Notes: generated by a model not told the origin, from the sequence alone. A stretch of 40,669 bases of DNA from Nemertoderma westbladi (GCA_032718475.1 JAUCBJ010002351.1:1-40669); one strand, 5' to 3'. Shown: positions 493-40,669, counted from the stretch's first letter. Numbers and translations are program-made.

Positions 493-500
493 CCGCTCCC
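493..500 (-). other. Polypurine tract of element 1
   Basis: Minus strand GGGAGCGG immediately before the TG of the 3' LTR. Confidence 0.75.
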
Positions 501-570
501 AGAAAATGGGATTTGAGTCTATAAAATATACAAAATCACAGTTTCTAATATACATAAATACTCTAAACAG

Positions 571-2020: not shown

Positions 2021-2083
2021 ATCTGCTATCTGAGTTTATTAATATCGAAATGAGTTTATGTTTAGGCGAGCGGACGTCGCTGC

Positions 2084-2559: not shown

Positions 2560-2842
2560 GCATACAGATCTGGGATGCTATTTAATAATAATTCTTTAAT
2601 TGTCAATATCCTCTTTATGCATGATTTTATTAATTTTATCGGCTATTGACTATATGTTGGAGATTCTCGCACTCTAATACACTCAATAGGATGAATCTCC
2701 GCTCCCATGATCTATTAATTAATGGAATTTTGGGAATGTTATAAATTGTACAAAATGACAATTTATGAAATTCATTAAAAATATGAATTTGAATTTATTC
2801 CCGTGAATTTTATTATTTGATGTTAAAATTGACACAATTTGA

Positions 2843-3130
2843 TTCCAGAGCAGGTCTGGGGACATAGGATCCTTAATTCTATGAAATTTGTCTTTTAAGA
2901 GTATCGGGAAGTGCTACGATATCTTAATCGACTAGAATTGTTAACGGATCTGAATTTTACAGATTTTAATAAATATTAAATTAATATTTAAGATGGGCAC
3001 CGATTTATTCCAGAACTTGTCTGGGGACGTTAACCACTGATTCTAGAATTTGTCTTTCAAGTATATCGGTGGGTGCCGCGATATCTTAATCGACTAGAAT
3101 TACAGATGGTCAAAAGGTTTAACAGATTTA
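2843..3130. repeat. Diverged direct repeat of about 125 bp (2 copies) in the element 1 3' non-coding region
   Basis: TTCCAGA...GTCTGGGGAC...AATTTGTCTTT...CGATATCTTAATCGACTAGAATT...ACAGATTT at about 2843-2968 and 3008-3130. Confidence 0.8.
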
Positions 3131-3650
3131 TTTGCGTTTTACGCTACTGTTAGAGGGACATCACGCTACTATATGTATTATTATATATGGTATGAGAGCA
3201 ATATCGCACGAAGCAATGTCAGTGTGAAGAGGCAAGTCGTTTCCAAGGTCTACCCAGAGCTTGGTTTAGCCGAGACACGAGGATCTGAACTTTGCATTCC
3301 TAATACTCTGCCTACCAATAATACTTAAGTATAGTAGGAGCTTTATTGTACTTTAATAAGTACGGACATTTCATCTTACTGTAGTCACGTATTTATAATA
3401 TGATACGGACAGTAAGGAAAGAGAAAAAAATAATTATTTCTCGCCGTCGCACTAAATATATATTATAAGTAATTACGTACGTAATAAACACTAATATATT
3501 GCACTAATCTACTAAATAATCACTAAAAGAACATTATACTAAATAAAATTAAAGAAAACGATTATAATAAAATTACATAATAATACATACATAAATATAA
3601 AATAAAAACAAATATAAAATGATATAGTCACACGCCCACTCCATATGTTA

Positions 3651-6600: not shown

Positions 6601-6704
6601 TCAGGCTCATCAACTATAGTAGGAAGTTTTTTGACCTTAATAATTTGGTCTGTAGGTTCTATACTACTTAAGTCTGTGCTAGCTAGTCTGTCACCAGTCT
6701 TGTC
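3651..6704 (-). pseudogene. gag: Gag-protease with in-frame deletions of RT, most of RNase H and integrase
   Basis: ORFs 5709..6566 and 3651..5690 are one frame with a single TAG at 5709-5711 (RYGN*DNIAKYLYAK); the frame stays open upstream to 6704. After protease the sequence jumps to NVDQWRH..NPADIASRG (about 3990), then to HPASRLCLLE (about 3780). No YxDD or DDE motif. Confidence 0.9.
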
Positions 6705-6837
6705 CTACGCCAAGCAGCCCGTGTAGTACCGGGGTTAATTTAACTATAACGGTATGTGTAACAAACACAATTACTGTAGGAATAAACTTGGGGACATGAA
6801 TGTTGCGAATAATCGCATAAACTCTGAACAATAAATA

Positions 6838-7355
6838 TTACGCTACCCGTACAGAATACTCAAACAAATACAAACCAAACGCTGGCAGACTACCACCAAG
6901 CCTAAATAAACTACCGTACGTGTAGATTCCGAAATGGTTAGTTAGTATGCGTTCTAACACGGTAGTACGACTTATTCTTTAAGAGGGGATTGACCTTACA
7001 GCTATGGCTGCCCCAACTTACTAACTGGCACTTTATCAGACAAACTCTACACACGCAGCAATCTCTTCAGACCTAATAATAGCTAGACAACAATCCAGCC
7101 TACAAAATATCTGAGTAATAACTATTACGGTACCCGAACAGACCACACAAACAAACACAGGCCAAAACGCTGGCAGAATACTGTCAAGCCTAAATAAACT
7201 ACAGTATGTGCAGATTCCAAAATGGTTAGTTAGTATGCGTTCTAACACGGTAGTACGACTTATTCTTTAAGAGGGGATTGACCTTACAGCTATGGCTGCC
7301 CCAACTTACTAACTGGCACTCTATCGGACAAACTCTACACACGCCGCAATCTCTC
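6838..7355. repeat. Tandem duplication (period about 288 bp) in the element 1 leader
   Basis: GGTAGTACGACTTATTCTTTAAGAGGGG... at 6961 and 7249 with near-identical flanks. Confidence 0.9.
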
Positions 7356-7658
7356 CAAACTCAACAACAATCTGACAACAGTCCGGCCTACAATTATCTG
7401 AACAATCTGAGCAGACTTACACGTCTTCAGCTCAATATTAACTTACATGTAAATAAAACCGACAGAAATAAGTAAAATCTCAATAAAAAACCAGGGCTGC
7501 AGTCCCTGATTAAATATCAATATTAACTTACTAGGAAATAAAACTGACAGAAATAGACCTAAGTAAAATCCCAATAAAAACCAGGCGTCCCCGATTTAAT
7601 ATTGAGACCTACCGGTATACAATAATCAAAATCGAATAATACTAATGTACTTATACTG

Positions 7659-7784
7659 GAAGTACCGGTTAGGACAGTTGGGCCTACGGACCTACAGAAG
7701 TACCGGTTCTGACAGTTGGACCTACGGACCTACAGCAGTACCGGTTCTGGCAGTTGGGCCTACGGACCTACAGAAGTACCGGTT
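7659..7784. repeat. 38-bp minisatellite, about 3.3 copies, in the element 1 leader
   Basis: Unit GAAGTACCGGTT(CT/AG)GACAGTTGGGCCTACGGACCTACA. Confidence 0.9.
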
Positions 7785-7839
7785 CAGGTTTACCGGTCGA
7801 CCGGTACTTTCAACTTTGTTGCTGACTGCAATAAAGTCA

Positions 7840-7850
7840 ATAACTGTTAT
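7840..7850 (-). promoter_or_regulatory. Non-tRNA PBS position of element 1, complementary to LTR site 8602..8612 (candidate self-priming)
   Basis: Minus strand ATAACAGTTAT directly after LTR ...TACA with no TGG; exact 11-nt reverse complement at 8602..8612. Confidence 0.65.
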
Positions 7851-9110
7851 TGTACGCGCTTTTGAAGACCTTTAGCAGTTTAACCTGCCAAAATTTATAT
7901 GTCTTTTGGTTTATAAATAGACTTTAGAAGATTACAAATATTTAATACCAATAAACACAACATTAGCAGAAGCCAGCCTAGTGCGCGTCCATTCACCCGC
8001 TGGATATACCCGGGAGACTGGATTCTGAGGGCTTAGATTATTATTGCAGTGTAAGCTTACTGTATTGTATTATTCGATTGATCGTTAATAAATAATTTCT
8101 GACTAATATTATTCACTTTCGGGAAATATTAACAGTTCCTTTAGGACGTGGCGCTCTATCTAGGTAAACAGAGATATGACTTATACTAATCACAACGGTA
8201 AGTCGGTAAGGCTTATGATTCACGTATGAGGCGCATTCTTTAGGAAATGCTTAGTTATCAATCACAATCAGGCACACTACCGGTAACACACAATACTGCT
8301 CACTATTTGCCGACCGTCAATGAATTTTATCATATATAAAGAGAACAGCAACGGACCAATGTAGTGCTTATCAAATAGCATCAAATTCACTACATACACA
8401 ATAATATAAGTCGCAATCGCTGTATATAACCCGTCTCTCTAACCTGTAGTGTATCAAGAAAATTGGGAAATTTGGGTTCTTTATATATGTTCTCCAAATA
8501 ATATTCAACCAAAACACAACAGTAAATAGCAGTATAATAATGTATGTTGAACCGATAATGCAAGAATAGAAACAAGTTGATATGAATTGATATATGATGT
8601 GATAACAGTTATACGCTCTATAATTTAAGCCTACTAATGTTTCTTCTAAAGTATGAAAACTAATTGACTCTAGAGCCAGTGTTCCTGGCCTAGATAGCAA
8701 CAACACAAAGTATCACAAAAAACAGTAAGACTGAACACTCCTAGTATGATCGGCCGAATATCTACACGTCGACAGAAAAAATCGCTCTGATTGGCTCAAA
8801 CCAAACAAAGAACCGTGCGTCCAATGGCTGTTTCCATGCCAGCAACCAGCTGCTAGATGTCGCAATCTGAATCATCAAGGCCAAGCCGTGTAAAGGTATT
8901 TGGTGAATTACGGGTTTTTTGCCTTACCATGTCCGCCAAAGCAGGTATATAGACGAATGACTTTTATGTCCGTTAAAACACCTGTAACGGTACCTTGCGG
9001 GCGAGGGGAATATATGTACAGTTAGAGAACCTTTTAGAGTATTCCAGCGCCTGGGGGGAAACTGGATTGCGAAGCAAAGGGGCCAGTTATATCCCACAGA
9101 AGCTTTTACA
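7851..9110 (-). repeat. 5' LTR of element 1 (1260 bp)
   Basis: TGTACG...TTTACA, matching both segments of the 3' LTR. Confidence 0.95.
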
Positions 9111-9679
9111 GTCGGTCAGATCGTAATGCGGGCCACTGCCAAGTTCCTCATGCCTCACTCCGGTCACCCACCTTGGAGTGCGGTGGGAAGAGTCCCACTT
9201 ACTGACTTACGTCGACGACTGGACGAATCGACGAGGATTGTGATCTGGGTTTAGCGGCGGCCCCGATCCTGGGATCGCCTGGGGGAAATGGTTGAACGTT
9301 GGGCAGACGTTATCGCACTGGATTACGTTCTCTGCGACGCGAAAGTGTGAAGCGAATTCGTTGTCGAATTGGGTCGGAAGCTGCGGGAATTCTACTGTTC
9401 TACGGGAGTAAACCGCAGCGGTCCGGTGACTACGGACGGATACTACTGGGATAAGCAGGTATTTTGATCGAGTTTCTCGTATTCTCGATGCTCGAGGCGG
9501 ATAGAGAGTTGGTTGTGTTGGGCGGTTTTGTTCAATTCTATCAAACATATTAAATAATTGGTAAAATAATAAAAACACACCAGATAAAGATACTGAGCTT
9601 ATGGTAAAGAGATAGGCCGAACTTACAATTTCCAAATAGATTGTTCATATAATAAATATATTTTTGGTATTTGATTTCA

Positions 9680-9929
9680 AGATAGGGGGGGGGGAACTGG
9701 ACGCAATAAAAATTCATCCCTTTCCAGGGGAAATTGGATGCAAATAACAACAGTTGATTACTCTCAAATATAAAACTGTAACCTGTTCTATTGGGTTTAC
9801 TTTATTGTTTTGGTTAAAATAACGTGCCACTGTAACCTGCTCCTTTCCCAAAATTTAGAAATTAATATTGAGGCGGGATATTAATTCGCCAAGATGGGAT
9901 TTGCGTCCAGTCCACCCCCCTCCTATCTC
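9680..9929. mobile_element. MITE (Mutator-like, about 250 bp)
   Basis: TIRs AGATAGGGG...CTGGACGCAA / TTGCGTCCAG...CCTATCTC; flanking direct repeat TTGATTTCA at 9671-9679 and 9930-9938. Confidence 0.8.
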
Positions 9930-10440
9930 TTGATTTCACTAAAAAATAGAATACATTGCATTTTACTGTTATAATTCTATTTTTATTCTAATTTAATTAA
10001 ATTTTATTATACAATCAAAATATAATTGAATTATATTATTGAGAATATACCATATACATTTACCGTTTAATATTTTAATAATATACTGTATTAATAGTTG
10101 TATTGAGTTATATTAGTTATATTAGTTATCTTAGTTGTATTGATCCAGTAACTCCCGTAGCGATGCGCATTGCGTTCTGTCGGTTTTGGTTGCCAATTAT
10201 TATTCCATGTTTTTCAACGCAGTAACAGCTAACTAACGATGTTGGTCTGGGTGCTCAAAGAGGCCGCCTGGAGAAGGTCCCGCCGTCGCTAGGATGGAAG
10301 CGGCATTACCCACGAGAATGGCTATACCAATTCGCTGTAGAAGGAACCGGTGAGAGCGGGGTTCGTGGGTAACTATCTGCAGACGGGAACCAATCTGTTA
10401 TAATTACTGTATTGAATAAAATAATTAATTGATTGTTTAT

Positions 10441-10822
10441 TAAACCGTGCTAAGCACGTTGAACTGGAGCTCTAACAATTCCCCACTAGCGGCAGGCAGG
10501 AACTGTAAAAGTCTCTGTAGAATTTCTAATTAAGCAATGCTCTTAGGTAACTACTACTAAATTTCAGATGAATCTGATCTTTGGTTCTATAATTACAGCT
10601 ATTTTTACGTTTCTGTTAATTCGCCCCCTAGCGGCAGACCGGGGAACTGTAGAAGTCTGTCTGTGTGTAGAATTTCTAAATTTTTTATAGACTACATGTG
10701 TACCAAGTTTGGTTCCATTTCATCCATGATTGACCGACTTATTAGCTTTTCAAACATTCCTGCCACAAACATAGCCAGAGGCAGCCACAAACAAATAAAA
10801 GCTGCAGGAACTCGAGCGTTAA
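10441..10822. repeat. Element with two related units about 140 bp apart, each carrying a CTCF-like motif (possibly a Helentron/HINE-type repeat)
   Basis: CCCCACTAGCGGCAG...GAACTGTA...TGTAGAATTTCTAA near 10481 and CGCCCCCTAGCGGCAG...GAACTGTA...TGTAGAATTTCTAA near 10622. Family assignment is inference. Confidence 0.45.
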
Positions 10823-11238
10823 TTAATTTATTAATTATTAAATACTGTTTCAATTAAATTCTTTATGAAAATCTAGTCATCTTCTTTTAAATATGGACCC
10901 TGCATTCATGGAAAATATAATATTTGATAATTCATCAGTCAGCCTACGTTAATTTCACAGCAAAGTCCTTGTCATGGCCTGTGTGTAGTAGGCCATGGTA
11001 CCACCCTACTACCGGTACCGGCTGACCGCGTGACCAGTGGCAACTAGCACTTCAGCACTTGCACAGCAACAGCACTACCGGCGATACACAGGTTGAAATT
11101 TATGTAGAGTTTGCTCAACAGTACAGATATAAAATAGTTATCTAAATTATATATATTACTATTGACAAGTATTGAAATATATACCGTTATTCGTGTTATC
11201 AGTATTTGCAACATCTGACATTGAAGAGGTGAGAGAAG

Positions 11239-18036: not shown

Positions 18037-20165
18037 GATTCCCCGTACTTAGTTCCAATTTAAGCTTCATGCGAATTTAGTTCCAATGGAAGCGAATTTA
18101 GTTCCAATTTAGGCGAACTTAGTTCCAATAACTGGAGAAAAACGAAAACTAATTTAGTTCCAATGGATGCGAATTTAGTTCCAATGGATGTGAATTTAGC
18201 TCCAATGGATGCGAACTTAGTTCCAATGCATGCGAATTTAGTTCCAATGGATGCGAATTTAGTTCCAATGGAAGCGAATTTAGTTCCAAAGAGGCGAGCC
18301 ACGTAGTTGGCGAAGAATCTGTTTAATGACACTATTAAGAGGCTGGTTAAACAATAATTGTAAATAACTAACCCAAAACGCCCAACGGTATACAGACGTT
18401 TCGGCCTAGGACGTTTCGGTCCAGGACGTTTCGGCCTGGACATTTCGGCCCGGACGATTCGGTCCGGACGTTTCGGCCCATGACGGTAACCGAATGAAAA
18501 GGCCAACTTGTTTGATATGATAATAATTATTCATTAAAATTATAATTATTTCACAATAACATACAAACACTTAATAAAATATCTTTCATGAAATGGCTAT
18601 TTAATTTACTTTTATTTCAAAATAAAATAAACATTAGGGAAGTGGTGCTCTGGTTCCATAGACAATTCGCCATCAATTATGTTATGCGGCCGAAAAAATG
18701 CAAGTCAGAACAAAACTTTTGGTCTCGAGTGCCACATTGCTAATATACAGTACTACTAAAGTGAATCAATTTCAAGAACCATTTAGGGCTTAAATCTCGT
18801 CTGATCGATATATTTTGGAGATACTTCATTAACTTTAAACATTACTCAATTGATAATTCTTGTAGCTGGACAGTGTATTGCAGCTATGTCTTAATGATCT
18901 GCTGAAACAATAACTATCATCTTCGATGATAGATGATTTATACCCGTCGATTTATACGCATACATTTCATCTAAATTTAAATTTAATACGCATATATTTT
19001 ATCTCATTCCATATGACATCCAGTCTGTCTCATAATTATTAGCAATGCCCCTTTAATGGAATATTTCTTATCTATTATATTTTTAAGACCAACATTAAAA
19101 TACAGTAATTTTAATTCGGTGTATTTTAATGTACTTTATTTATTGACTCACATTTTAAAATACGTATGTTTTTTTTATGGGGGAAAGCCCATCATCATAA
19201 CTCTAAAGTTAATTTGTCAGCATGTTATCTTTGTTCTAAGTTACAGTATGGTGTAAATTTATATTAATAAATAATAAGTTATTATTTATATATATAAGAA
19301 CTTCGATCTTGACGACTTTCAAACAGGTGTCGGAGCAGTTCCTACTGACAACTCCTCTTGTAACGAACGTAACAACTACAAAACAAATATATTGAATAAC
19401 TTATTATTAATAGCTTATTTAAGGGAGTAAATTTAATCTTTGGGCCAAAACGTCCGACAAGCAAATCTTGTATTTCATTCATTGGGCCGAAACGTCCTAG
19501 GCCAAAACGTCTTAGACCGAAACGTCTGTTACCCACGCCCAACCTCCTAACGAAAACAATCTTATCCCAAACAACGCCCAAGCTCATAACCAAAACTACG
19601 CCCAACCTCCTAACCCAAACAACGCCCATCCACCTAAACCGAAACAACTAGTAAATATTGTATTTGTTGTGATAAATGGCACAATGTGCATGACTTGAGT
19701 ATATAATACTACAGACTCAGTCAGTCAGTATCAGTACACTCGTCATTAATATATAATTCAAAATGTGTAATTATACATTTAATAATAATTCGTTTTTTAA
19801 AAATGACGGAACGGTTTTACAATTATTTACAATTATTGTTGACCCTGACCCACCCCAAATATTGACAATACGCAATATGCTTCGCCTACTACGTAGCTAT
19901 CCCCACGATTGAAACTTTGAAACTAAGTTCGTACCCATTGGAACTAAATTCGCTTCCATTGGAACTAACTTCGTATGCATTGGAACTAAATTCGCATGTC
20001 GCATCCATTGGAACTAAGTTCGTTTTGATATTCTGGGATTGAAACTAAGTTCGCCTCGATTGGAACTAAGTTCGCTTTGTAAAATTTATTTTGGAACTAA
20101 ATTCGTTTCAATTGGAACTAAGTTCGCCTTTGAAAATGTGCGATTGGAACTAAGTTTGTGCTACC
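18037..20165. mobile_element. Foldback/Mutator-like non-autonomous element with 21-bp subterminal tandem repeats
   Basis: 9-bp TSD GGGACCTCG (18028-36, 20166-74); GCGAATTTAGTTCCAATGGAT array at about 18048-18290, inverted at about 19910-20155. Confidence 0.85.
18387..19534. mobile_element. Mutator-like non-autonomous element with GACGTTTCGGCC subterminal repeats
   Basis: 9-bp TSD ACGCCCAAC (18378-86, 19535-43); ends GGTATACAGACGTTTCGG...CCGAAACGTCTGTTACCC. Confidence 0.9.
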
Positions 20166-20864: not shown

Positions 20865-21858
20865 TTAAGAATGCTGTGCCGGCACAAATTTGCACCGCCA
20901 CAACTCACTATCACCCATGACATTTGCTAGATCATCCGCATCTCCAAGGCCAGTGTCCTTTTTAAGATGCGTCTCAAGAAAGTCATGGGCTGTACAGTCC
21001 AGATCCACTAGGCTTATTCACTCCATGAGGCCGCCAAAGCACAAGATTATGCACTGGCTGGTCCTCACGGCGAAAGCAATGTTCTGAAAATCGGAGGCGA
21101 CTTTGTTCTAGTGTCAAGCTTGAGGGAACCAATGAGACACCTCCAATGTTATATAGTGTTTGGTTGACGAAGTGTGCATTGTACTTGACACAATGAACCC
21201 GACGTAGCATTCTTGTGAATGTGCCATCCAGAGAATTGGTGTCCTCAGCAGTTAGAGCCCAGCATGGACTCCCGTAGAGGAGTACTGGAACTACTGCTGC
21301 TCTAAATAATCGGACCTTAAGTTTCCGATTAATTCTCGGTGAATTCCCAATCCTGGAAAGCCTATTCAAGGCTGCCCATGCCTTTCCCTTACGAATTCGA
21401 AGGTCCTCACCTGACTTCCGAATCCATGATCCTAGGTAACAGAAGTCGTCCACATGCTCAACCATACCATCCTTTGCGCTTATTATGCTCATCCGGTCAG
21501 AGACTTGCTGAGGACTTTCAAAGTTAACTGTGAAAATTGTGTTCTTTTTGGAGTTAACAAAAAGACCAACACTAGAAGCAGCCTGTTCTAATGAACTGAG
21601 GAGCCGTTGGGCTCCCTCTAGTGATTCTGAGAGTACTCCTAAGTCATCAGCAAAGTCTAGATCAGTTAGGTACTTGGCAGGATTTCCTCGACTTCTGGAG
21701 CCAGTAGGTGGAGTTATCATCACCCCATCATCATTATGATGATCTAGATCCAAGGACATGCGTAGAACATAGTCAACCACAATTATGAACGAGAATGGCG
21801 CAAGTGTGTTTCCTTGGAGGACGCCCCATAACACTTCAAATGGTTCTGTATCACCGTT
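20865..21858 (-). pseudogene. RTE-clade reverse transcriptase, C-terminal half
   Basis: GVLQGNTLAPF.FIIVVD, LDFADD, FCYLGS, LLYG..CW, LRF..HC motifs; frameshift near the 3' end. Confidence 0.9.
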
Positions 21859-21884
21859 AAGCACGTCAACGGGGATTGAACCAC

Positions 21885-21926
21885 CGCTATACGTACGTTT
21901 CGGCCTATCAGGCCTCATCAGTAGCG
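21885..21926 (-). ncRNA. Type I minimal hammerhead ribozyme
   Basis: Minus strand CGCTA-CTGATGA-GGCC-TGATA-GGCC-GAAA-CGTACG-TA-TAGCG: full core, stem I CGCTA/TAGCG, 4-bp stem II, palindromic short stem III, GUA cleavage triplet. Confidence 0.88.
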
Positions 21927-22841
21927 CTGTCCAGTTCAGCCACTTGCCCCTTACATTCACTCTCTAATCCACTTCCAGGCAATCTTAAGTTGCATATATA
22001 TTTTCTGTAATAATCATCGGATCGTGTAATGTTAAATAAACGAATTTCCTTTCAACAATTTAAATATGGTGGAAAGTTTCCATAGCAACAGACACTCTTT
22101 ACTGCCTCTTAGGCTACATTCTGTGGGATGTTTGAACATAAACATACGTTAGATAGAGATCCGCGCAGTTGTAAATAGTTCTATGGCTGTAAATAATCTA
22201 TGCCAAGTTATCAAAATAGCATTAAAAACAAGAAAACAAATTATAAATTGTAATAATATCCTTTAATCTATTCAATATTATATACTACATCAATAATAAA
22301 AAACTATTTCCAACCACAATAGACCTTCTGCAACCACAAATGCAATATGTTTCCATTGAAACATTAACAATAAATATATGATGTAGGCCTACTTAATATC
22401 ATCACGTCATATTAAACTTTTAAACGTTTTCACATTGGGAAAAGGTGTATTTTATTTCACAGCATTTTTGAATGAGAAAAAATAACAAAATTATCAAATT
22501 AAAATTGAATTTGAATGAAATCATTATATTCCGAACAGAATGAGCCCAAAACCAGCAACCTACGATTTAAACTCGCGAAGTTATGGCCAAAAAGAAGCTG
22601 CTGCCTAATTTAAGAATATAGACTTTAGTTGGAGTGCTAATAATAATAAAAATAAACATACTGTAGTTATAAAGTTAAACAATAATTTTTCTTCCTCGAG
22701 TTGTATAGTGTATGATGGAATTGTTTTAGTTTATTGTAGTAGCGACAGAATACTTAAAGGTTTGCATAGGCCTACTTGTACTAGTAATTCCTCTAAGTCA
22801 CTAACATATTGTTTCAACATATCTGTGCTGATTATCTGTGC

Positions 22842-27547: not shown

Positions 27548-27690
27548 GCAAAGTCGGCAATGACGTCCAGGTGGGATCAAACTGGTGACCTCCTCCGGGT
27601 TGGAAGTCTGACGCTCTAACTATTCAGCTTGCGGCTCAGGTAAAAGTTAGAATTGGAAATACTACCTGATACCTTGTATGTCCGCAATTT
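27548..27690 (-). repeat. Repeat with an internal tRNA-like segment (copy 2)
   Basis: Minus strand ...AGCTGAATAGTTAGAGCGTCAGACTTCCAACCCGGAGGAGGTCACCAGTTTGATCCC; homologous to 25976..26114. Confidence 0.6.
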
Positions 27691-27803
27691 AACTTCTCTT
27701 GGCCTCCCATCTGTCACACATCCAGCACAGTGGCAGCAGATGATGGTATTGACAGATGGGAGGGGAGGCCATGATGAGGTAAATTGGGGATATACACGGT
27801 ATC

Positions 27804-29593
27804 TGTCACGGTGACTACCTCATACAGTCATATATGCCAGTACTGCAGTACGCAGATATGGCAGTATGGAGGAAGCCGTTTAGAAAGTTTCAATATAAAA
27901 AAACGCCGAAAGGGACGAACCGCAATCTTATATATAAAATACTTTCTTGGTCCCCGAGCCAGACCAGTCAGTCGTTATGCTGGGCCCTTCTGTCAGCTAT
28001 GTTCTCTTTTTAATAAGAGAATTGACACTGTCTATCTAATTATGAATTAATTACCTTACTATAAAATGTGTATAAAATGTGCTCTGCATATGCCAACCCA
28101 ACCCAAAGTCCACCCCGATTGGCCCACCCAAAGTCAGAAAGTCGCCCAAATACAGAAATGTCCACCCTGATTAGCCCACCCAAACAGCCAAAGTCTGAAA
28201 GTTGTAAGAGATAAATAATGAATAACGTGAATAGCGTACGCTCCAGGCAGCCAGGACGGTAGAAAGGTGCCAGGATCTGAGGCTGGACAGGTTTATCCGA
28301 TTATATGAGTAATCTGGTCGTTAGATAGTTCGGTAGTTAATCGTAAAATCTCCTAAAAAATCAGAACATTCACCAGCACTAACTCTGACTATGATTAAGA
28401 CAAGCTGACAAGGTCTGTACCGCTGTACCGGTAACAGTATACAGTATGTTCCGCAGTTACTGATTCCAAGCCTGTACAGTGCCAGCTGTCCTGTCTCTTT
28501 TTTGGGCTTACATTTTTGAGGCCTCAGAAACCAGCTAGTCCCAACCGCCGGGCGTACGCAATACCGCTCTCCTAATTTTTTCATATAATATAACAAATTA
28601 GCACAAATAGTACGCCCATTTGCCTCTAAAACTAAAAAACCTTCATGGGCAATAAATCAATAAACTAAATAATATTACACTTTAATCGTATTAGAGTTTG
28701 TATAGTGTATATATAGAGTACATCCAATATACCTCCAATGAGGTGAGAGAAAATAAAACGTACAGTAGGACTCGATCATTGACCGCGGACCTGAGCATTA
28801 TTGGTCGCAAAAGAGTTCTGAAGTTATCGCAATATCAATGAGCTGGTTTAGAGGACTAAATAATCAATCGTTGGAGAACCAGTGATGCAGAAATCGAAAG
28901 ACGAGCACCAAAGTCGAGCCGCAGTCATTAGAGAACCCTGATCAAATCTATTATCTAAATAATATTTTTCGTAACTGATAGCGATAATATTCGCCATTGT
29001 GATATCTTCTGCTTGTCATATTAATCGGTAGATGAGCGTCTCTGGTAGATAATTCAGTATTTACCGCTCATATTATAATTAATTTTTCTTCATTCCGTTT
29101 ATGAAAACCTTTGCTGGGTTTATTTCCATAAGTGATGATACAATGTCAATAGGAGTTAAAATCATCAGGACTACTTCGAATTTGGCACAGCCTCGGAGAT
29201 GATAATATTTTTCGTACCCAGGATATTATGTAATCCATAATCCTTCCAAATCACCCCCCACAACCCGACCAACTGCATCCCACATCCCATATAATGCAAA
29301 CCAAACCGCACCCCACATCCCATATAATACAAACCTAACCCTAGAGCTCATTTTCCTTTTCGAGTGGGTTTTTTTTATTTATTTTTTTTTATTATTGTAC
29401 TTTCGGTTTATAAAATTACGAAAACCGAATGAAAAATATTACCCGAGGACAAAAAAAGTGTTTTTTGGGAGTTCTGAGCATATTTTTAATTTAATTAAAA
29501 TACTTTATTCATTCTCAAAAATAAATTTTATTTCAGAACTCAAAATAATGCGGCATTTATAAGGTAGCAAAAAATAAAAAATATTTTTAATTA
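27804..29593 (-). repeat. 3' LTR of element 2 (right boundary inferred)
   Basis: Starts TGTCACGG; the first 504 bp are confirmed by the other LTR. Right end inferred from PPT-like GAGAGCGG (minus, 29594-29601), similar to the element 1 PPT, though no terminal CA is present. Confidence 0.55.
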
Positions 29594-32500
29594 CCGCTCT
29601 CATGCACATTTACGTTCTGTGGTGTGTTGTGCAACGCCATTTCTGAGTCTTGTTCTAGGAGGCAGAGTTTGCGAATAGGACGTTCTAGAACCTGACCAGA
29701 GGGTACCTTTAATAACACACTTCGCACAAGTCCATCTTTGCCGATTTTTGGCTCAATAACCTGAGCAATTTTCCAATTTTTGCGAGATATCAGTGGTTCA
29801 TGAATCAAAACTAAATCTCCAGTTTTAACATTCTCTACTCTGCTGAACCATTTTGTACGCAGTTGTTGACTGGGTAGATAGATAATACTGCAGCCAAATC
29901 CGCCAGAATGTATTTGTTAAAAGTTGCAAAGTTTTCCACATGCGTTTTGAGTTGATGTCTCCATCGTCAATCTCGCTGATAGGTACCATTGTGGCTCTCT
30001 TTGTATACAAAAATGTGCCGGTGTAAGTGCTTCCACACATTCAGGTGAGTGTGACATCTTTGTTAAAGGTCTCGAGTTTAATACACACTCAACTTCACAG
30101 AACAATGTCCGCATAGCCTCATCATCGAGGTATGTGTAGTTTAATTCAGCAGGCAATATCTTATATAAGGATCTCTTGACACTTTGGACTAATCGCTCAT
30201 AAGTGCCACCATACCATGGTGAATATGGTGGTGTGAAGTCCCAGTCTATAAATTGGATCTGATAGTCCTTCAATGTTTCTTCGACTAAAACATTATTCCA
30301 ACCTTCAATTGACTTAGATATCTCTTTGTTAGATGCAACAAAGTTGCCACCATTATCAGACGTTATAGATTTTGGTGTACCTCGTCTGGTGATGAATCGC
30401 CGTAAAGCCAGTAAGAAAGAGTCCATATTAGCGTGAAACATTAGATCGATATGAATGGCACGAGTTGTCATACAGACCATTAAAATGCCCCATCGTTTGA
30501 TTATTGATCTCGCGCGTTTGACCTCAATTGGTCCGAACATATCAATCCCACAATTTGTGAATGCAGGTTCAAAAATGGCAAAACGGGTTTCTGGTAAATC
30601 TGCCATCTGTTGTTGCATGAGTGGTGCATTAAAGCGTTGACATGGTAAGCAAAATTTCATGACATTTTGTAATGTTCTCCAGGGGTAGATGAGGTAATAA
30701 TGTTGTCGTAAATGAGCTAATATGTGATCTCGCCCTGCATGGTTAAGATCCAGGTGGGTATCATAGATCAACTGTTGCAATAACAATGGCTCTCTGATGA
30801 GTATTGGATGAATTGTGTTTTGTGATACTGGAGCAAATGTTAAGCGAGTTTTAACTTTAACAAGTCCATCTATCATGGTGGTATTGTATTTAGATGGTTT
30901 GATTGGTTTATCATGTTGGTGTTGGGAATATAGATTATCATCAGACAGCACTTGAGAGAGACGCAAACGTTGTTTGAGAGTCACTGAACGTTCTTCTGCA
31001 GTAATTGGTTGCAGAAAATGTTCTGGGATTGTGGTCACATCCTGGGCTTTCTTCCAACATCTCCAATGTGTGTATCTCTTAATTCGACATGGCTCATCTA
31101 TTGTTTCTCGTAGAGACTTATTGTTCCTCAAAACATCTTCAAGCCAAGGACTCAAACCCCTAGAGATATCTGGAAAATTTGCATCTGTCGGTTGCTTCTG
31201 GTATTGTTCATTGACTACTGCAACCACCTCAGTTAATCCTTGCTCTTTATAGGACTGATTAACACTATATTTATTACCTTTAATTAAAAGTTTTGATCGT
31301 TTTGGTTGTGGTTTAGATGGTATGGTCTCCGCTCTCGCAGGGAGCTGTAGATCCTGAAGAGGTTCAGGCCAATACTCTGCTGTCTTAGAAAGAAAGTCAG
31401 GGCCATTCCACCATACCCTGTTGTTGATTATCTCATCAGCATAAGCTCCACGTGATGTGAGATCTGCAGGATTGTTGACACCTGGTACATGAAACCACTG
31501 CTCTACTTGGGTGAATTTAAAAATATGATTCACTCGATTGGTAACATAAACACATAGTTTATGTTTTTGATTATGTAGGTATTGAATTACAAGTGATGCA
31601 TCTGTCCAATAGAATAAGTGCAATTGTATAGTGAGTTCCTTAGAGATCATTCTAGACAGGTCTACACCCATAACTGCAGACTGCAATTCTGCGCGTGGTG
31701 TCATTAGTCCCTTGGTTGGCATCACACGGGATTTCGATGCCGCAAATGCAACCTGTATATTAGAAGGGGATGCTTCGAATCGCAAATAAGCCACTGCTCC
31801 CATGCCCTTTGAACTTGCATCAGAAAATATATGCAGTTCCAAAATGTCATGCTTTCGGAGTCCTTTGAAATATGTTCGCTTAATACGTAGTTGTTCAATA
31901 TTCCTGAGATCATTTTCCCATCGTCGCCAATCTTTTTGGAGTTGAATAGGTAGTGGATCATCCCAGTCAAGGTCTTCTTGCCACATTTCTTTAATCAATA
32001 ATTTTGGCAATAATATTACAGGGTTGAGAAATCCTAATGGATCAAAGACCCCAGCAAGTTTTGACAAACATTTACGTTTTGTAGATGAGATCTTCTGTAT
32101 GTCAATCTTCACCTTAAAGTAGAACTCATCTTCCAAGGTTGCCCATCTCATCCCTAAGATTTTAGTGACAGGTAAGGGATCAGAGTCCAGATCAATATCT
32201 GGATTTGCACGTTGATTGGCAGGGAATGATTCAAGAAACTCTTTGCTATTGCTGGCAAATTTGATTAAGTTGAAACCACCCTTCTTCAAGCAACTTTGAA
32301 CTCCGTTGTTTGGTCTTGTTCAGAATCAGCAACATCATCCATATATATGTTGGTTTGAATAGTTTCAATAACTGCAGAATCAAATTGATATTTATTATCT
32401 TCAGCAGTGCTATATATAATACTTTCACAGTTACTTGGTGAAGATATTACACCAAAAGGTTGAGTTGTCATCCAATATTGAGTGGGTTCTCCTTCTAGAG

Positions 32501-34757
32501 ATTCGTCAGGCCACCAGTAATATCGCAGGCTGTCTCTATCTATAGATGGTACTCGAACCTGCAGGAACATACCTTCAATGTCTGCGGTAAAGGCATAATC
32601 AAATTCGCGGAATCTGAATAAAATCCCATGTATCGAATGGAGAAGATTTGGACCAGCCATGTATTCAAAGATGTCTGTATTCAAAGACTGACCACGATAT
32701 TTTGCTCTACAATCAAAAACAACTCTAACCTTTCCAGGTTTGTTTTCATTGGTGACAAAGTGATGAGGCATGAAATAGGATCTTGGTCCGAAATCCAGGG
32801 AATGAGATGGGACAGGTTCAGCAGCTCCAATATTCAAATATTTTGTCATCTGTATATGATACATCGCAAGGTAATCTGGCTTTTGTAAAAGCCGTTTTCT
32901 TAATGATTTAACACGCCGCTTAGCTAAAGACTCATTATTAATTAACTGAGGAGGATCTTGGCGCCATAATAATCCTACTTCATAGTGACCATCAGAGAGT
33001 TTTTTGCGAGTTCGACTCTGGATCTCAATGGATCGCTGTTCTTCAATGGAGAAACCAATATCAGTTTCATGAGGGAGGTAGGCATCTACATCAAGCCAAT
33101 TTCGGATTGTTCTATCTAGTTGGAGGTCTCTTTCAAGATTATGACTTTCATCATTGGATTCATCCTCTGATATGCTGGTAGGACTACTTTCAATTGTTAA
33201 TAAGGATTTAATATCTGCACAAATATCAAACTCTTGACCATTATCATTAAAGATATCATCCAACTCTCGTTGCATGACATTCTCAAAACATTGACAAACA
33301 GATTCATTTGTACTTGACTCAGTAAAGTTAATATGAGTGGTGCTACGTTCCTGCAGAGTCCTATCTGAAGGACCAGAGCAGTACCACCCAAGTGATGTGA
33401 GAGCTGCAAATGGCTTTGTCATCCGGTCTTCCACCATAGGGTCTGCTGGGATGACTTCTAGAATCCTGAAAATTTCAGGGCAATTCTGTCCCAGCAACAT
33501 CATAATTTTAGGATAACTTGAGTTTGGGATAGGAATATTATTATCCTTGACGAAATTATCATCCTTCCAATCATAAGGAATGCCAAGTGAATCAGCTAAT
33601 TCCTCCATATGGATAAACTTTACATTTTTGGCTGTCTGTCCATTAAAACTACTTAGAGCTGGACTTAGGTTAGCCTTAGCTACCACTGTACTAATTTCCT
33701 TACGCCAAGAGACAACTGTCAAGCGAAGTTTTGCAGCAGTGTGATCAGAAAATACCTGGTCGAATATTGTACTATCCAGGAATGAAGATGAACTGCCAGT
33801 GTCAATAAGTGCATGAACAATGCAAGATGACTTGTCGCCAGTGATCTTCAGGGTAAGAATTGGAAATTCACGAACTACTTGGCCCCCTCTGTGAATACGA
33901 CAGATTACAATTGAAGAGGAGTCCGACATTTCACCCTCAGAGTCAAATTCACTTGAATTCATTTTGTCATCATCAGTATCAGAAGAGACTGCATTTACTT
34001 TAGTTTCAAAGTGCTTCTGGTCATTACTTGACATCTCCAGTATATGAAGTATGGTATGATGGCTTCGACCACACTTGCGACATTTATTTTTATTTTTACA
34101 TTGGGATTTCCTGTGCATATTTGATAAGCAATTATAACAAAGACCTTGAACCTTACAATAATCTCTTCGTTGATCTAGTGTCATGGCAAGAAAATGTTCA
34201 CATTTGTATAGGGGGTGTGGTCCTGTACACTGAATACATTTCTGCTCACCTGTAGCTTTGGATTCCTTCTGTTGGTCTTTCAAATTACTCTCCTTAATAT
34301 AATCTTTCTTAGATTGAGGAAGGTTGATTTGCCCAACATTGGCTCTGTTCACTGTTTCGTCATCTTGTCCGGAATCTACAGCAAGGTTAGTTTTCATAGA
34401 CTTTACCTTTCCCTTAGTTGATTGATCATGAGATTCCGAGAAGTAGAGTAAAATCTCAACTTCTTCTTCTAAGAATTGGGAGAAATGTGAGGCTGTGATA
34501 GCTGTATTTGATTATTGGTAGTAACAATGTGTTGGCAAGCTGTATTTTTCGAGGTGTTTGTTATTATACATTTTATTATAAGAAGGGATCTAGGGGGTCT
34601 TAACCTCGAATGATAAGTTTATTTTACCGAAAATAACTTATCTTTTATTGGCGCAATTGTAGGGCTAATCCCATCCATGCATACTTTTTAACCGGGTAGT
34701 GTACAAATTTAGGAATCGCGTAATTTTTCTTGAAATTAATATCTCATATCTCTCCAA

Positions 34758-34800
34758 ACCACGTACGCGTTTCGACCTTACTGGGTCTCATCAGCGTGGT
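34758..34800 (-). ncRNA. Type I minimal hammerhead ribozyme
   Basis: Minus strand ACCACG-CTGATGA-GACC-CAGTAA-GGTC-GAAA-CGCG-TA-CGTGGT: intact core, 6-bp stem I, 4-bp stem II, palindromic ACGCGT stem III, GUA triplet. Confidence 0.92.
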
Positions 34801-34862
34801 GTCGGATTCGAACCTGGGACCTCGAGGCGGAAGCCGAGACTACAACCACTAGGCCACAGGTT
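34798..34862 (-). promoter_or_regulatory. tRNA-derived internal Pol III promoter (A and B boxes) fused to the hammerhead
   Basis: Minus strand TGGCCTAGTGG (A box), CTCGGCTTCCGCCTCGAG (anticodon-arm-like, TCC), GGTTCGAATCC (B box). Confidence 0.8.
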
Positions 34863-37800
34863 CTTGAGATATGGAGTATTAATTTCAAAGACAGCTGCCA
34901 TTTTATTAGCCCCTGATTTTTGATTATTGGTAGTAACAATGTGTTGGCAAGCTGTATTTTTCGAGGTGTTTGTTATTATACATTTTATTATAAGAAGGGA
35001 TCTAGGGGTCTTAACCTCGAATGATAAGTTTATTTTACCGAAAATAACTTATCTTTTATTGGCGCAATTGTAGTTGTATTTGGTATACCATTTCTTTCTA
35101 ACCTCAGCCTTTTCTTATACCATCGCCGACGAATACCAGAGTCTAATTTATTTACAACATCTTTGAGTATCTTTGCATTATCAAGTTGATGTTCCACACC
35201 AAGACGCTTTAATTGTTTGAGGGTTCTGTTAAACTCATCAGCAAATTCTATAACTTTAGAACTAGAAGTTCCTTTTATAGGTTCAATTTTTAACAGTCCT
35301 TCTATAAGTGAGTTCACAATATTTTCATCTTTGCCATAACGTCTTCTTAATTCACCCCAAGCTTGATCAAAACCATCTTCTAAGCCAACAAAGGTTTGAG
35401 CGAGGCAGTGGAGTGCAGTGGAGCATCTTCCAACATTGAACAAAGGTAGTTGTGCTTCTCTTGATCTGAGAGTGGGTAAATTAGTACATTTGTTTTAAAA
35501 TGATGTTGGAAATTTATCCATTCATCGGGGGCGCCAGAAAATTTTATGAATTTTAATTTTGGTAAATTTCTATCCGCTGAAAGACGGCTCATGGCCTGAA
35601 CTATGCTTTCCTCAGCTGCAGACTGATTTGTTCTTTTTTGGGAAAAGTCTAGAAACCCAGGCGTATTGTATTTTCTCCTAGTATCATGTACATCTTGTTC
35701 GATTACGTGTTGGTTAGTTAGTTCTTCTATACGATCAGTCATTTCTTTAGAGTTCTGGCGTACAATATCTTGAACGAATTTCTCGAATTGTGGCGGGATT
35801 GACATAGGATCTGCGTTATTATCTGTGATGATTTTCTGAGTATTTGTATTGTTTGGGCCAATACTGTAGGAAGTTAAATTGGGCAATTCCTGTCGGTGGT
35901 GCGAAGCTAGACGTATTCGTTCCTGTTCAGATTGTTGACGTTGAGCTGCTTGCTGATTTAATTCATTACTCTGTTGAAGAACAGTGGCAGTTAGATGCTC
36001 ATTTTGGATTTGCATATCAGCCATTATCTGTCTTACCTCACTATTAATCAAATGTTGCTGAATATTGCCTGGTCTATTAGTAGGTTGTCGCGGAGATACT
36101 GTATATTGATGGCTATTTCGCAGGCTGTTATATTGCTGAGATGGGACATAGGTAGGATTAACAAATCGATGATTCTGCGGTAGTGTTCCTAAGTTTGAGT
36201 GTGGAATGAGAGGGGCTGAATTTATTGCTGGTTGTTGCTGAACTAACTCAGACATAGGATGATTCAGCTCCAATGAAGGATTTTGAAGATTAGATACAGG
36301 TATACCACCAATTTTCAACTCACTTGAACATTGTCGAGAATCTTTTGCTTCCCCAGCATGGTTCGGAGATGTATAGTTATACGGAAGAATATTTTTATTT
36401 ATTAAAACAATAGGCGATAATGCTCGTGGAGGCTGTTCATTAGATCTAGTCACTGGGACTTTGGAATTCGATCGACTCTGGTCATCTAATCGAGTTGAAG
36501 TGAGGGGGTGAGCTACAACATTATGTCCTGTTTGCAAATTGGCTGCAGAAATGGCGATATCATCAGGAATATTGGGATTTACTTCCAAGTCATTTTCATT
36601 GAGGTCCATGTCATCCTCATCAGATTCCCCAGGCTCATCATCTTGTGACAAATAACGTCGGATAGAGTGTGGCAGTGAAGTCAATGGATGAATACTAGAC
36701 ATCCGCTCATCAATTGGATCTCCAATAGCCTGTGCAGCTTCCCTAGCAGCTCTCCCCAATTTTCTCAACTCTTGTTGTCGAATGGCTAGTTGTTGATCCA
36801 TTTGTAGTTCAAGTTGCTTTCGCTTGAGTTCCTCTTCAATATCCTGCTCCTTTCTTTTTCTCTCCCGTTCCTCTGCTTCGCGGACTAAAGATCTTTTCTT
36901 GGCCTTTGCGTCTATTTTTAGTTTTTCCATTTCAACTCCCTTCTTAAGTAAGTCTATAGCTATTTTTTCATTCTCTTCAAACTGGTGGAATCTGGCTTCC
37001 TTGTATGCTGCATCTTCCGCAAGTCTTCTTCTGTTTTCTGAGATGACAGAAGGGGGTTCGCTGACTTGACTCAGTGAACAGTTTGGGGTTTTTCCAGTGA
37101 GAAGAGTCATACCTCGTGTGCCACAAATCTCAGCTAGTTTATTAGCAATTTCTTTCATACGGACAAGATGTTGTTGTTTTTTGTCTCGGGCTCTATTTAC
37201 AAGAGACTGAAAATTACGGGCTTCTGCCACCATTTTAAAATCTGAGTTAAGTATGAGTAATTTATTTCCCTTAGATTCTAATTCCATATAGATTTGGAAT
37301 ACCTGATCCTCCCGTAATGATTTAAGATTCTCTGGGGTGAGCTTAGAAGTTAAACTGTTGAGATATCGAGTGGAGGAGGCTAGGTATCCTGATAAACTCC
37401 GGCCCAGTCTCTCCTCAGAAGCACAAGCATCAATATCGTATGACCATAGGGGGGAACAAGCATCAAGGACTCGTTGGCGTGACTTATCAGAAAATCGTCT
37501 GACAGCTATGCTCAAGCACTGATTCTCATCTAGGATTGGTAGTAATATGGAAGTTGTATGATCCACTGGAGTAGGTGGTAAAGAAGTGGAAGGATCAAGG
37601 ACTGTTTGATCTCCATCATATTCTCCACTGATTGATGAAGATTCACTTCTAGGAAGTGACTTAGTGCCAGTCGCCATAATATATATTTTTTTTGTTAAAT
37701 TGTTTTTGATCAAATTGGGAAAATATAAGTTGAGTAAATATCATCAAATTATTGAAATTATATTTAAATGGAATGTACTGGTGTCTGAATAGTACAAATA

Positions 37801-38645
37801 CAAATCAATACTGGTACAGTATTAACAGTAAATATTACAGTACACCTTCACTACTACCGGTACTTGTTAATATAATATTAATACTACTATAGGATACTAT
37901 GTTGAAATAAACCAGCAATGTAATTAACACATGTACATGTAACCCTTTTAAATAATCAGGTCCGTTAATACTATACCTCCCTTTTTATATAGGCCTACCG
38001 GTATATGTTGTGTTGTATTATATATAATACATACAACTCTGCATGTATGCCAATAATCATTTAAAATAATTTATGCTTGCTGCTTTATTTATGGTAGGTT
38101 ACCGGTATGGGTAGCCTATGGGACCTACCAGTCTGCCCGTTAAGTACGGTAGGCCTACTCCTCTAGCAGCCTAGAACTGTAGGGTAAAGTAGAAACACAG
38201 AAACAGGATGCAAATAATTGGAATAAAATGATTGACAAACACAAATATATTTAAACTGGGTTGAACTAATAGCAAGTTGGGCATCCCCAAGAGAGCAATC
38301 CCAGAAAGCTAAAACTGTAAAAGTTCACAGGAATCACTTCTCAGACTGAAAAGTCAGAATATGAGCGAAAATATGCGGTCCTGAGGTGGAGCTCGCAAGT
38401 TCGCAGGATTGGTTGTAATTAAACAGTGACGAGCAGTTTAATTTTGAAATAAGGGCAATGTCTGGCCGTATAACAGCAAACCAGCAGTGTCCTGCCCTAC
38501 CGGGCTACCGGTAGGTGAATGCGAGTTCGGAACTTGGCCACATTGACGCAAAGAAGCACAAACCGCACAGGTTGGTTTGAGAACGCCGAATTTTGATTCG
38601 GGCAATCCTCCTCAACCAACTGCAACCTAACCTATAAAGGAAAAG

Positions 38646-38657
38646 GTTCTGATTTTT
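38646..38657 (-). promoter_or_regulatory. Non-tRNA PBS position of element 2, complementary to LTR site 28356..28367 (candidate self-priming)
   Basis: Minus strand after LTR ...GACA reads AT-AAAAATCAGAAC with no TGG; exact 12-nt reverse complement inside the longer LTR copy. Confidence 0.65.
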
Positions 38658-38659
38658 AT

Positions 38660-39163
38660 TGTCACGGTGACTACCTCATACAGTCATATATGCCAGTACT
38701 GCAGTACGCAGATATGGCAGTATGGACGAAGCCGTTTAGAAAGTTTCAATATAAAAAAACGCCGAAAGGGACGAACCGCAATCTTATATATAAAATACTT
38801 TCTTGGTCCCCGAGCCAGACCAGTCAGTCGTTATGCTGGGCCCTTCTGTCAGGTATGTTCTCTTTTTAATAAGAGAATTGACACTGTCTATCTAATTATG
38901 AATTAATTACCTTACTATAAAATGTGTATAAAATGTGCTCTGCATATGCCAACCCAACCCAAAGTCCACCCCGATTGGCCCACCCAAAGTCAGAAAGTCG
39001 CCCAAATACAGAAATGTCCACCCTGATTAGCCCACCCAAACAGCCAAAGTCTGAAAGTTGTAAGAGATAAATAATGAATAACGTGAATAGCGTACGCTCC
39101 AGGCAGCCAGGACGGTAGAAAGGTGCCAGGATCCGAGGCTGGACAGGTTTATCCGATTATATG
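38660..39163 (-). repeat. 5' LTR of element 2, truncated
   Basis: Matches 27804..28307; identity ends abruptly at 39163, where Gypsy RNase H sequence begins. Confidence 0.95.
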
Positions 39164-40010
39164 TAAAGATTATTATTAAACTGATTGTCAACTGTCCGTA
39201 ACTATAACATCAGATGCATCAAAAATTGCCATAGGTGCTGCATTGCACGAAATAAGTTCCGCGGAAGAATCAGTACCAATCGCATTCTATTCTCGAGAAT
39301 TAAGTGACAATGAATCGAATTGGTCAGCTTTTGACCGAGAATTATTAGCAGCATTCCAGGCAACTCGACACTTACGGGATACCTTAGAAGGGCGCCATGT
39401 AATTTTATACACAGATAACAATTGCGATAACACAGATCGAGGCGGACAGTTCGAGTCTGAATTAATGGCTGAAATCTCGAAAATAATCAGCTTCCACTGT
39501 ATGCGTACGACATCATATCATCCACAAGCAAATGGTAAAATCGAAAGATTTCATAGAACACATTTCATAGAGTTTATTCTGAAACAGCACAAACATATTT
39601 CCGAGCTAGACTTCCAAGTTCAGTCCTGTTCAGGCGAACCCCAAATAGTAAAGTCTTATATACAACAAAAACTACAAATTTGTGAACAGGTATTCGTCCG
39701 GATTGACAGAATCCGTAAACCCCTGGAGCACCTTATCAAGGGCCATTCCCAGTCATAACTCGCTCTGACAAAAGCTTCTGCATTCGAACTCCAGTTGGTC
39801 AACAAACTGTATCAATAGAGTGGCTAAAACCATGCAATGTATCGGTGTTTGTGGACAAAGTACCCCATGACAAAAGAGATCATAACTTCAAGGTTAAACA
39901 CGACTTACTAGATTCGACAAACCTTACACCACAAACCATAACTGACACAATTAAAAAAACAATAAAAACTCGTAGTGGTAAGAAAGTACGTTTCTACAAT
40001 AGAGTAGTAA
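39164..40010 (+). pseudogene. pol: Ty3/Gypsy pol remnant (RNase H and integrase pieces with internal deletions)
   Basis: SDASKIAIGAAL, IAFYSR.L...E.NWSAFDRELLA, LYTD, TDRGGQFES, TTSYHPQANGKIERFHR, VFVRID, PYQGPF (frameshifted), TRSGKKVRF. Confidence 0.9.
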
Positions 40011-40071
40011 TAGTACCTGTTTAAAAGTTTCAGTTTAAAAATTATTTGTATAAAGATGCATTCCATTTTTT

Positions 40072-40669
40072 GGTGGAAGGAGTTATGTAGTGCGCGGGAC
40101 ATATGAATGCAGTTATGACAGAAAATATTAAGAGATTCACTCGGCACTGCCATCTTTTCTCAGGCCATTAGGCCTACAGCGTTACAGCAGTCCGTCTGAT
40201 TCAGACACAGACAGTTCTATTATACCAGTACGGTGTAGCGTCATAAATGACCCTGCAGTAGACGACCAGTGTCTGCGCGGTTAATGATTTTGATTACCGT
40301 TGACTGTGAACGACCCAACATGTAGTTGTGCGGTACACAGCCCCAATTACAGCAGGCCATTGTAATAATGTTAATATAATTATTGTCTAGACTACTGTTG
40401 AATTAACTGTGAACGACAAGTTACCGCAACGGTACCGTTGAGTGTGATTGAGCTCTAAGAAAGATAATATGTTAATAAACTGTAATTAGATTTAAATAAA
40501 TGTGGTTAGTGTGGATAAATAACTAAATAGCATGTTAGAGGAAATGTCATGTGAAAGTCACGGTGAATAACACAAAAAAATACCGCTATGTCTATGTCTA
40601 ATACTAATAACACACAAAAAACGTATAAATACTATAATTAAATGATATATTAATTCAGTTAAGAGGGTC
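40072..40669 (+). repeat. PPT and probable 3' LTR of the Gypsy remnant (right end not determined)
   Basis: GGTGGAAGGAGTTA followed by TGTAGTG at 40086, shortly after the integrase end; AATAAA motifs downstream. Confidence 0.6.

Follow-up and report, generated by a model that had tools for sequence, protein, structure and literature searches.

A BEL/Pao element of Nemertoderma westbladi whose primer-binding position is complementary to its own LTR, suggesting Tf1-like self-priming

Introduction

The ICTV profile of the Belpaoviridae (2021) describes elements with protease, RT, RNase H and integrase, LTRs of 0.2-1.2 kb, a polypurine tract of about 10 nt and an 18-nt primer site for tRNA-Arg or tRNA-Gly, and regards their replication as poorly understood (PMC8742986). 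The window analyzed here, that is, the whole stretch of 40,669 nt from Nemertoderma westbladi (GCA_032718475.1 JAUCBJ010002351.1:1-40669), contains on its minus strand a BEL/Pao element (27804..39163, the "focal element") in which the sequence adjoining the 5' LTR has a complement within the LTR itself. The question raised by this locus is what primes its minus-strand DNA synthesis.

Structure of the focal element

By its proteins the focal element belongs to BEL/Pao (Belpaoviridae). It has the Pao-type domains DUF1759, PF05380, H2C2, rve and DUF5641 and the order protease-RT-RNase H-integrase. PF05380 is Pao-specific, and we take it to be the RNase H region. Full-length relatives match the element collinearly in tblastn, and its best database protein matches have 27-41% identity. 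Its domain order, its direct LTRs (760 bp in the 3' copy) and its polypurine tract agree with the Belpaoviridae profile; the 18-nt site for the 3' end of tRNA-Arg or tRNA-Gly is absent. The features are:

27804..28563, minus strand: 3' LTR, 760 bp (U3 end at 28563; alternative reading 28560)
28009..28014, minus strand: ATTAAA at LTR position 550, the sole AATAAA/ATTAAA-type hexamer in the LTR, downstream of the site
28118..28174, minus strand: CCAAT-like boxes at 390 and 442 of the LTR, lying in GC-rich repeats downstream of the site
28354..28367, minus strand: predicted self-primer ("the site"); exact 12-nt complement here (28356-28367), extended to 14 nt in other copies' contigs
28564..28573, minus strand: polypurine tract AGGAGAGCGG, adjoining the LTR; resembles GGGAGCGG of element 1, a second element in the window, and GGGGCCGG of relatives
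29602..29916, minus strand: C-terminal piece of integrase (DUF5641), in a different frame
29917..32319, minus strand: remaining RT, PF05380, integrase H2C2 and core
32286..34511, minus strand: zinc knuckles, protease (DTG) and RT as far as YMDD (RVT_1 E=2e-4, below the curated cut-off)
34507..35073, no strand assigned: insertion inside gag, with 156-bp direct repeats at both ends
35030..37740, minus strand: gag (DUF1759), split over two frames
38639..38645, minus strand: imperfect duplex extension, five extra predicted pairs (one G-U) with 28368-28374
38646..38659, minus strand: primer-binding position, AT + AAAAATCAGAAC, adjoining the LTR end, without TGG; unchanged in contigs of four sequencing runs
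38660..39163, minus strand: 5' LTR remnant, LTR positions 257-760, without the U3 part and the primer site

The LTR copies (27804-28307 and 38660-39163) differ at only 3 of 504 positions, and the insertion is therefore young. The copy is dead: an insertion interrupts gag, which lies in two frames; frame breaks occur both immediately past YMDD and in the tail of the integrase; and the promoter side of the 5' LTR is gone. This LTR is truncated at 39163, the point at which a plus-strand Gypsy RNase H fragment starts.

Complementarity between the post-LTR sequence and the LTR

An earlier note on this DNA had described AT and a 12-mer, without TGG, directly after the LTR, and an exact complement of the 12-mer within the LTR. 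Both observations are confirmed. Beyond the right-hand LTR, which ends in ...GTGACA, the minus strand continues as ATAAAAATCAGAACC and contains no TGG within the first 40 nt. At 28367..28356 the minus-strand sequence is GTTCTGATTTTT, which is exactly complementary to 38657..38646, and each of the two 12-mers occurs only once in the window. The longest same-sense match between the post-LTR sequence and the LTR is 6 nt. The site is situated 552 nt from the U5 end and the right LTR stops 49 bp short of it, both distances being correct in the note because the two LTRs match throughout the segments compared above.

With offsets of 0-5 nt permitted, dinucleotide shuffling of the LTR gave a match of 12 nt in 15 of 20,000 trials and one of 14 nt in none. 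The note's view that coincidence is unlikely is supported. Many related families show the pattern again in other letters (see below), and recurrence of this kind is the signature from which the literature predicts self-priming. Natural segments of the window give 12-19 nt in 11 of 11,604 cases, and 2 of 60 pseudo-sites within the element's own leader reach 10 nt. The working rule for predicted self-priming, as given in the available text of Neumann 2019 (PMC6317226), is a complement of at least 10 bp starting 0-5 bp past the LTR; the focal copy has 12 nt at offset 2, and other copies of its family have 14 nt at offset 0. A and U dominate the 12-bp core, whose predicted energy is -12.2 kcal/mol, and most of the LTR site in the focal copy is predicted to lie within a local hairpin. 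The duplex-energy test gave a modest signal (11 of 300 shuffles for the focal element, 38 of 200 for element 1). ARAGORN and Rfam searches found no tRNA or Rfam match in the window; the host's own tRNA set lies beyond it.

A similar arrangement occurs in element 1:

7840..7850, minus strand: primer-binding position of element 1, ATAACAGTTAT
8602..8612, minus strand: its complement, LTR positions 499-509 of 1260

The recurrence in two families, on which the note had relied, is real in that element 1 has an 11-nt match between these positions, but two elements are insufficient alone and element 1 is a weak case: its match is reached by 66 of 20,000 shuffles and is nearly palindromic, and tblastn with full-length relatives found no RT match in it. 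Element 1 and the focal element have 26% identity over 336 residues of Gag-protease and no notable DNA likeness. With the 14-nt allele of the focal family, the predicted primer of each element terminates in TTAT and its pairing reaches right up to the LTR end, accounting for the ATAA start common to both primer-binding regions.

The LTR boundary and other copies

Other copies were found in contigs from four public runs bearing the same organism label (X1 to X4), which represent at most three samples; X1 may be the source of the window itself. The contigs remain alike across 28368, and two long ones diverge at 28563, right at the polypurine tract. These two (X2 record 10 and X3 record 17) have variants in common and are probably one locus in two samples. 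A single 1404-nt contig of X4, combined from two listed records (30 and 24) on the grounds of length and depth, extends from the 3' UTR across the complete LTR as far as the primer site; it is a collapsed LTR. The agreement of the contigs as far as 28563, together with the X4 contig, thus gives an LTR of 760 bp (27804-28563). The note had mentioned that the site might prove to lie outside the LTR; it is found inside, at LTR positions 197-208 of 760. A start of the LTR at TGTTCTG (28368), which would make the site a terminal inverted repeat, was rejected, because the contigs are alike past 28368 and diverge at 28563.

At 28354 a letter other than that of the window is found in all of the covering contig depth in all four runs. 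At 28355 the same is true of all the depth in X2-X4 and of 70.7 out of 103.3 in X1. With the alternative letters the site becomes GTTCTGATTTTTAT, which is complementary to all 14 nt counted from the LTR end, including the AT spacer. For 38642-38660, none of the four runs lists an alternative letter, and no compensatory change was seen within the focal family. X1 contains the focal insertion itself, a loose contig end being identical to the left flank of the window, and the two deviating letters of the window may therefore be an assembly error, although contigs drop rare variants, so that they may also be genuine.

Survey of related elements

Relatives were obtained as 80 loci from a metagenome scan, with 30-41% identity; many of them may share a host species. 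Scoring was possible for 25 of them, the other 55 having no readable 5' LTR end or being near-copies. The scored loci fall into a set of 14 with both LTR ends readable and a set of 11 with a 5' LTR. An exact 29-nt pattern had no match in the metagenome contigs, and no relatives were obtained from 92 stretches of viral contigs.

Eight loci of the first set match their own LTR over 10-14 nt across a GT(A/G)AG...(C/T)AG junction, and two match contiguously over 10-11 nt. Two TGG families are without a match. L016 was counted as a miss, with 4 nt under the strict rule; by eye, it has one substitution in each LTR. L055, first counted as a TGG type, was excluded on the ground that the end of its repeat is no LTR end, and its TGG label remains in two of the trees (the 41-row tree and the RNase H-integrase tree).

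Four loci of the second set repeat families of the first, all of them matching, and seven families are new. Three of the new families match across a junction and three contiguously (0-1 of 300 shuffles each); L041, with 12 nt at offset 6, was counted as a miss. Five of the seven new LTR ends were read by eye with the matches already seen, and the initial offsets of 0-3 gave 5 of 11 clear cases in this set, the 0-5 rule from the literature having been applied afterwards.

Altogether, a 10-14-nt complement of the post-LTR sequence is present in the LTR of 16 of the 18 non-TGG families and in neither of the two TGG families. It lies across a canonical splice junction in 11 of the 16 and is contiguous in five, with 12 different sequence pairs among them, and the paired stretch starts 0-5 nt from the LTR end in every one. 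When primer sites and LTRs were swapped between elements, 10 nt was reached in 10 of 240 pairs, nine of these inside one group with a common primer site; downstream pseudo-sites reached it in 3 of 840 cases. The related families thus mostly keep the pairing with different letters, and the group likely starts copying with its own RNA.

The focal site is 197 nt from the U3 end, close to the relatives' median of 205.5 (range 106-365, n=16). Relative to LTR length its position is 0.26, a value lower than in any other of the 18 elements. A poly(A) hexamer is found downstream of the site in 8 of the 9 first-set relatives listed, and likewise in the focal element. L020 has a TATA-type hexamer at 119, upstream of its site at 183. 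Several relatives have near-palindromic primer sites (TTCGAA, AAGCTT, GTTAAC); that of the focal element is not palindromic.

Phylogenetic placement

The RT/RNase H phylogeny that the note had proposed was carried out with pieces of RT, RNase H and integrase, 24 rows selected from 41 being used for a careful tree. Ten self-complementary families form a group with 100/99 support that also contains Schistosoma and Styela proteins. The focal element and two proteins are sister to this group, and the two TGG families branch outside at 90/93. The same split was found in a quick tree of all 41 rows, at 96 SH-aLRT. The focal element has a long branch (1.65) and was left unplaced by a tree built on RNase H and integrase only, so its position as sister to the self-complementary families appears probable and is not firm. 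The tree separates the group from the TGG families and has no named reference elements in it, and the name of the Sailor lineage (Sinbad, Sparrow, Surcouf) is therefore only a lead: the self-complementary core, outside which the focal element falls, includes a protein from Schistosoma, the genus in which Sinbad was described, according to the available text on that lineage.

The note had proposed tRNA-independent priming for a whole clade. The pattern holds for a sub-lineage, in which it may have had one origin; it is not BEL/Pao-wide, because the two related TGG families are without a match and branch outside the self-complementary group.

Proposed use of the complement

The focal family likely primes its minus-strand DNA synthesis not with a tRNA but with an LTR stretch of its own, in a manner similar to Tf1. 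Transcription would start upstream of LTR position 197, which would place the stretch in R near the 5' end of the RNA. By folding back over some 550 nt, the stretch would reach the primer site. In the manner of Tf1, the RT/RNase H of the element would presumably cleave where the duplex ends on its 3' side, and the freed 3'-OH would be extended through U5 and R. The strong-stop DNA would then transfer to the 3' R, and the primer stretch would be re-inherited from there. The duplex of the 14-nt allele would be flush with the LTR, and with the polypurine tract adjoining the other end the cDNA would have no terminal overhangs. Many relatives would assemble the same primer by splicing out an LTR intron, while the focal family would have it ready-made. 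On balance, we lean towards the view that an animal BEL/Pao sub-lineage lost tRNA priming once, early, and primes itself, the deep-branching focal family showing a simple form (contiguous and flush) and most sampled relatives having a primer assembled by the spliceosome.

A U5-leader stem is predicted in the focal element from folding without a shuffle control. Two other sources of the primer in the focal element were rejected: a splice junction, which gives at best 8 nt even with loose sites, and its own poly(A) site, the only hexamer being 340 nt downstream.

Alternative explanations

The promoter of the focal element bears on the alternative that deserves most attention, namely that the site lies in U3, so that the RNA contains it at the 3' end alone, where pairing would join the ends of the genome (or of a dimer) and aid strand transfer or supply a primer cut at the 3' end. 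No TATA-type hexamer is found upstream of the focal site. The CCAAT-like repeats are all downstream of it and, with the sole ATTAAA, would fit a transcription start near position 500 and a short R; a U3 location of the site is thus conceivable, and its low relative position in the LTR points the same way. Downstream starts that skip the self-primer are known in Tf2, as far as the available text of PMC5341516 goes, and downstream promoter motifs are therefore compatible with an upstream start. The absolute distance of the site from the U3 end equals the median of the relatives, and the hexamer of L020 precedes its site. Moreover, the site spans an intron in 11 families, and such an intron would tend to disappear if splicing had to take place in the 3' copy, which serves as the template for U3. 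We consider a U3 location unlikely. It is less likely again that the pairing is a structural or regulatory switch, acting in dimerization, packaging or translation control, while priming occurs otherwise, for example from a protein or another leader site. The near-palindromic primer sites of element 1 and several relatives would suit such a role, and fungal GalEa elements have a palindromic hairpin, of unknown role, in place of the primer site (PMC5445492, in the text available). However, the pairing starts within 5 nt of the LTR end, where minus-strand synthesis must begin, in all 16 matching families, it is absent where a TGG is present, and the focal site is not a palindrome.

Priming by a host RNA, be it a piece of a tRNA or a Pol III transcript that terminates in a U run, with the LTR copy as a by-product, is suggested by the 12-nt complement itself, which starts with GTTC and finishes in a U run. 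GTTC and a terminal U run are features of tRNA T-loops and Pol III RNA ends. Half-tRNA priming is also known in Copia, according to the available text of PMC6317226. Nevertheless, the twelve pairs of site and complement would each need a different host RNA, in 11 families the complement exists only at the element's own splice junction, and the allele of the focal family finishes in AT, with no U run. These observations make a host primer improbable, somewhat more so than a switch. The least probable explanation is a chance match in an A/T-rich LTR. The match includes a low-complexity U/A run, natural segments sometimes do as well, and there were many elements to choose from when the feature was first picked; the 14 nt in other copies, which no shuffle of the focal copy's LTR equaled, the position at the LTR edge and the recurrence in relatives have largely refuted it.

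Comparison with known systems

In Tf1 and Tf2 the primer site binds a self-primer from R, which the element's RT then cleaves off and extends, as described in the available portions of PMC5341516, PMC4600332 and PMC10085805. Groups described as self-primed, or predicted to be so, are Tf1/sushi, Tcn1 and the TAR lineage of Copia (PMC6317226, text available in part). The Ty3/gypsy chromoviruses of this kind (Tf1/Tf2/Tj1, Tf1/sushi, Tcn1) resemble the focal element in that, as far as the available descriptions go, they have no tRNA site and carry a complement of the post-LTR sequence in their own LTR. They belong to a different superfamily, whereas the focal proteins are of Pao type, so that the focal element is Tf1-like by interpretation and not a member of that group. 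A location of the primer at the 5' end of the RNA is presumed in the focal element, where the pairing extends imperfectly 7 nt further upstream. The two duplexes that flank the primer in the three-duplex "pretzel" of Tf1 were not detected in the focal element above shuffles (11, 33 and 18 of 60) with the leader folded piecewise. The relatives of the focal element differ from the Tf1 group also in that their primer is often split by an intron. The plant Ty1/copia TAR lineage (Houba, Osr-1), for which the same rule predicts self-priming in the available text of PMC6317226, is separate from animal BEL/Pao.

No report of self-priming in BEL/Pao was found in the literature searched, in which subscription papers and Repbase reports are mostly not included. 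Term look-ups in the available text of BEL/Pao surveys and descriptions (PMC554778, PMC3118150, PMC6238403, PMC8220671) and of PMC3601003, PMC12440569, PMC5443660 and PMC5445492 showed no self-priming. The complement in the focal element is real, and we infer for it a known mechanism in a superfamily in which that mechanism appears to be new. If this is right, self-priming has arisen in all three superfamilies of LTR elements, described in Gypsy, predicted in Copia and now in BEL/Pao; it would account for elements without a recognizable primer site, offer a simple test for annotation and point to a splice-built primer in the relatives. Assembly of the primer from two LTR exons would, if true, make splicing a switch for reverse transcription. 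The focal element, as a distant, intron-free and flush-pairing member of the self-complementary set, adds breadth and controls to it.

Termini, spacers and predicted split primers

In contigs from three of the public sequencing runs (X2-X4), the LTR end of the studied BEL/Pao element that adjoins the primer site (window 38661) is TA, not CA. The U3 end of the element, at window position 28563, begins TAT. Because of these two features, the family of the studied element may have TA...TA termini. The LTR end is likewise TA at L009 and L048, two of the related loci from the metagenome scan.

The short spacer between the polypurine tract and the LTR is often the mirror of the spacer preceding the paired site, as seen in L006, L014, L041, L048, L071 and the window elements. 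The mirrored pairs are AA/TT, AGA/TCT and none/none; L008 and L069 are exceptions.

At eleven of the related loci (L006, L007, L008, L009, L014, L022, L025, L028, L036, L050 and L071) the complement of the primer site is formed only across a canonical intron within the LTR. The predicted primers of these intron-bearing loci have AAC or GAC at the end in most cases, often with C next. These ends, together with the C, are a possible cleavage signature. At another related locus, L080, tandem repeats with a 210-bp unit fill about 9 kb (2013-10908), starting exactly at a BEL LTR end.

Other features of the window

28564-29605, 3' UTR of the studied element, about 1 kb
34507-35073, insertion within gag of the studied element, core flanked by 156-bp direct repeats
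2-9110, element 1, LTR of 1260 bp
39164-40669, plus strand, 3' part of a Gypsy element, with an RNase H match
18044-18297 and 19915-20156, two blocks of 21-bp tandem repeats, inverted relative to each other and separated by about 1.7 kb
27600-27781, short repeat of very high copy number, left of the studied element
20983-21963, non-LTR-type RT fragment (RVT_1)

The 3' UTR carries three polypurine tract-like GAGCGGTA motifs, at 29599, 29069 and 28569, and contigs of three runs skip 842 nt from 29216 to 30059. The gag insertion, which is presumably TRIM- or SINE-like, has a tRNA-like GGATTCGAACC motif in its core.

Element 1, the other BEL/Pao element of the window, has no RT match, and two ORFs at 571-1621 are without a Pfam match. 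Its left LTR copy is missing about 770 bp, the primer site among them.

The truncated LTR of the studied element is fused to the Gypsy fragment. Downstream of its RNase H match the Gypsy fragment has, near 40086, a purine tract and TGT. The inverted blocks of 21-bp repeats look like the termini of a foldback or MITE-type element.
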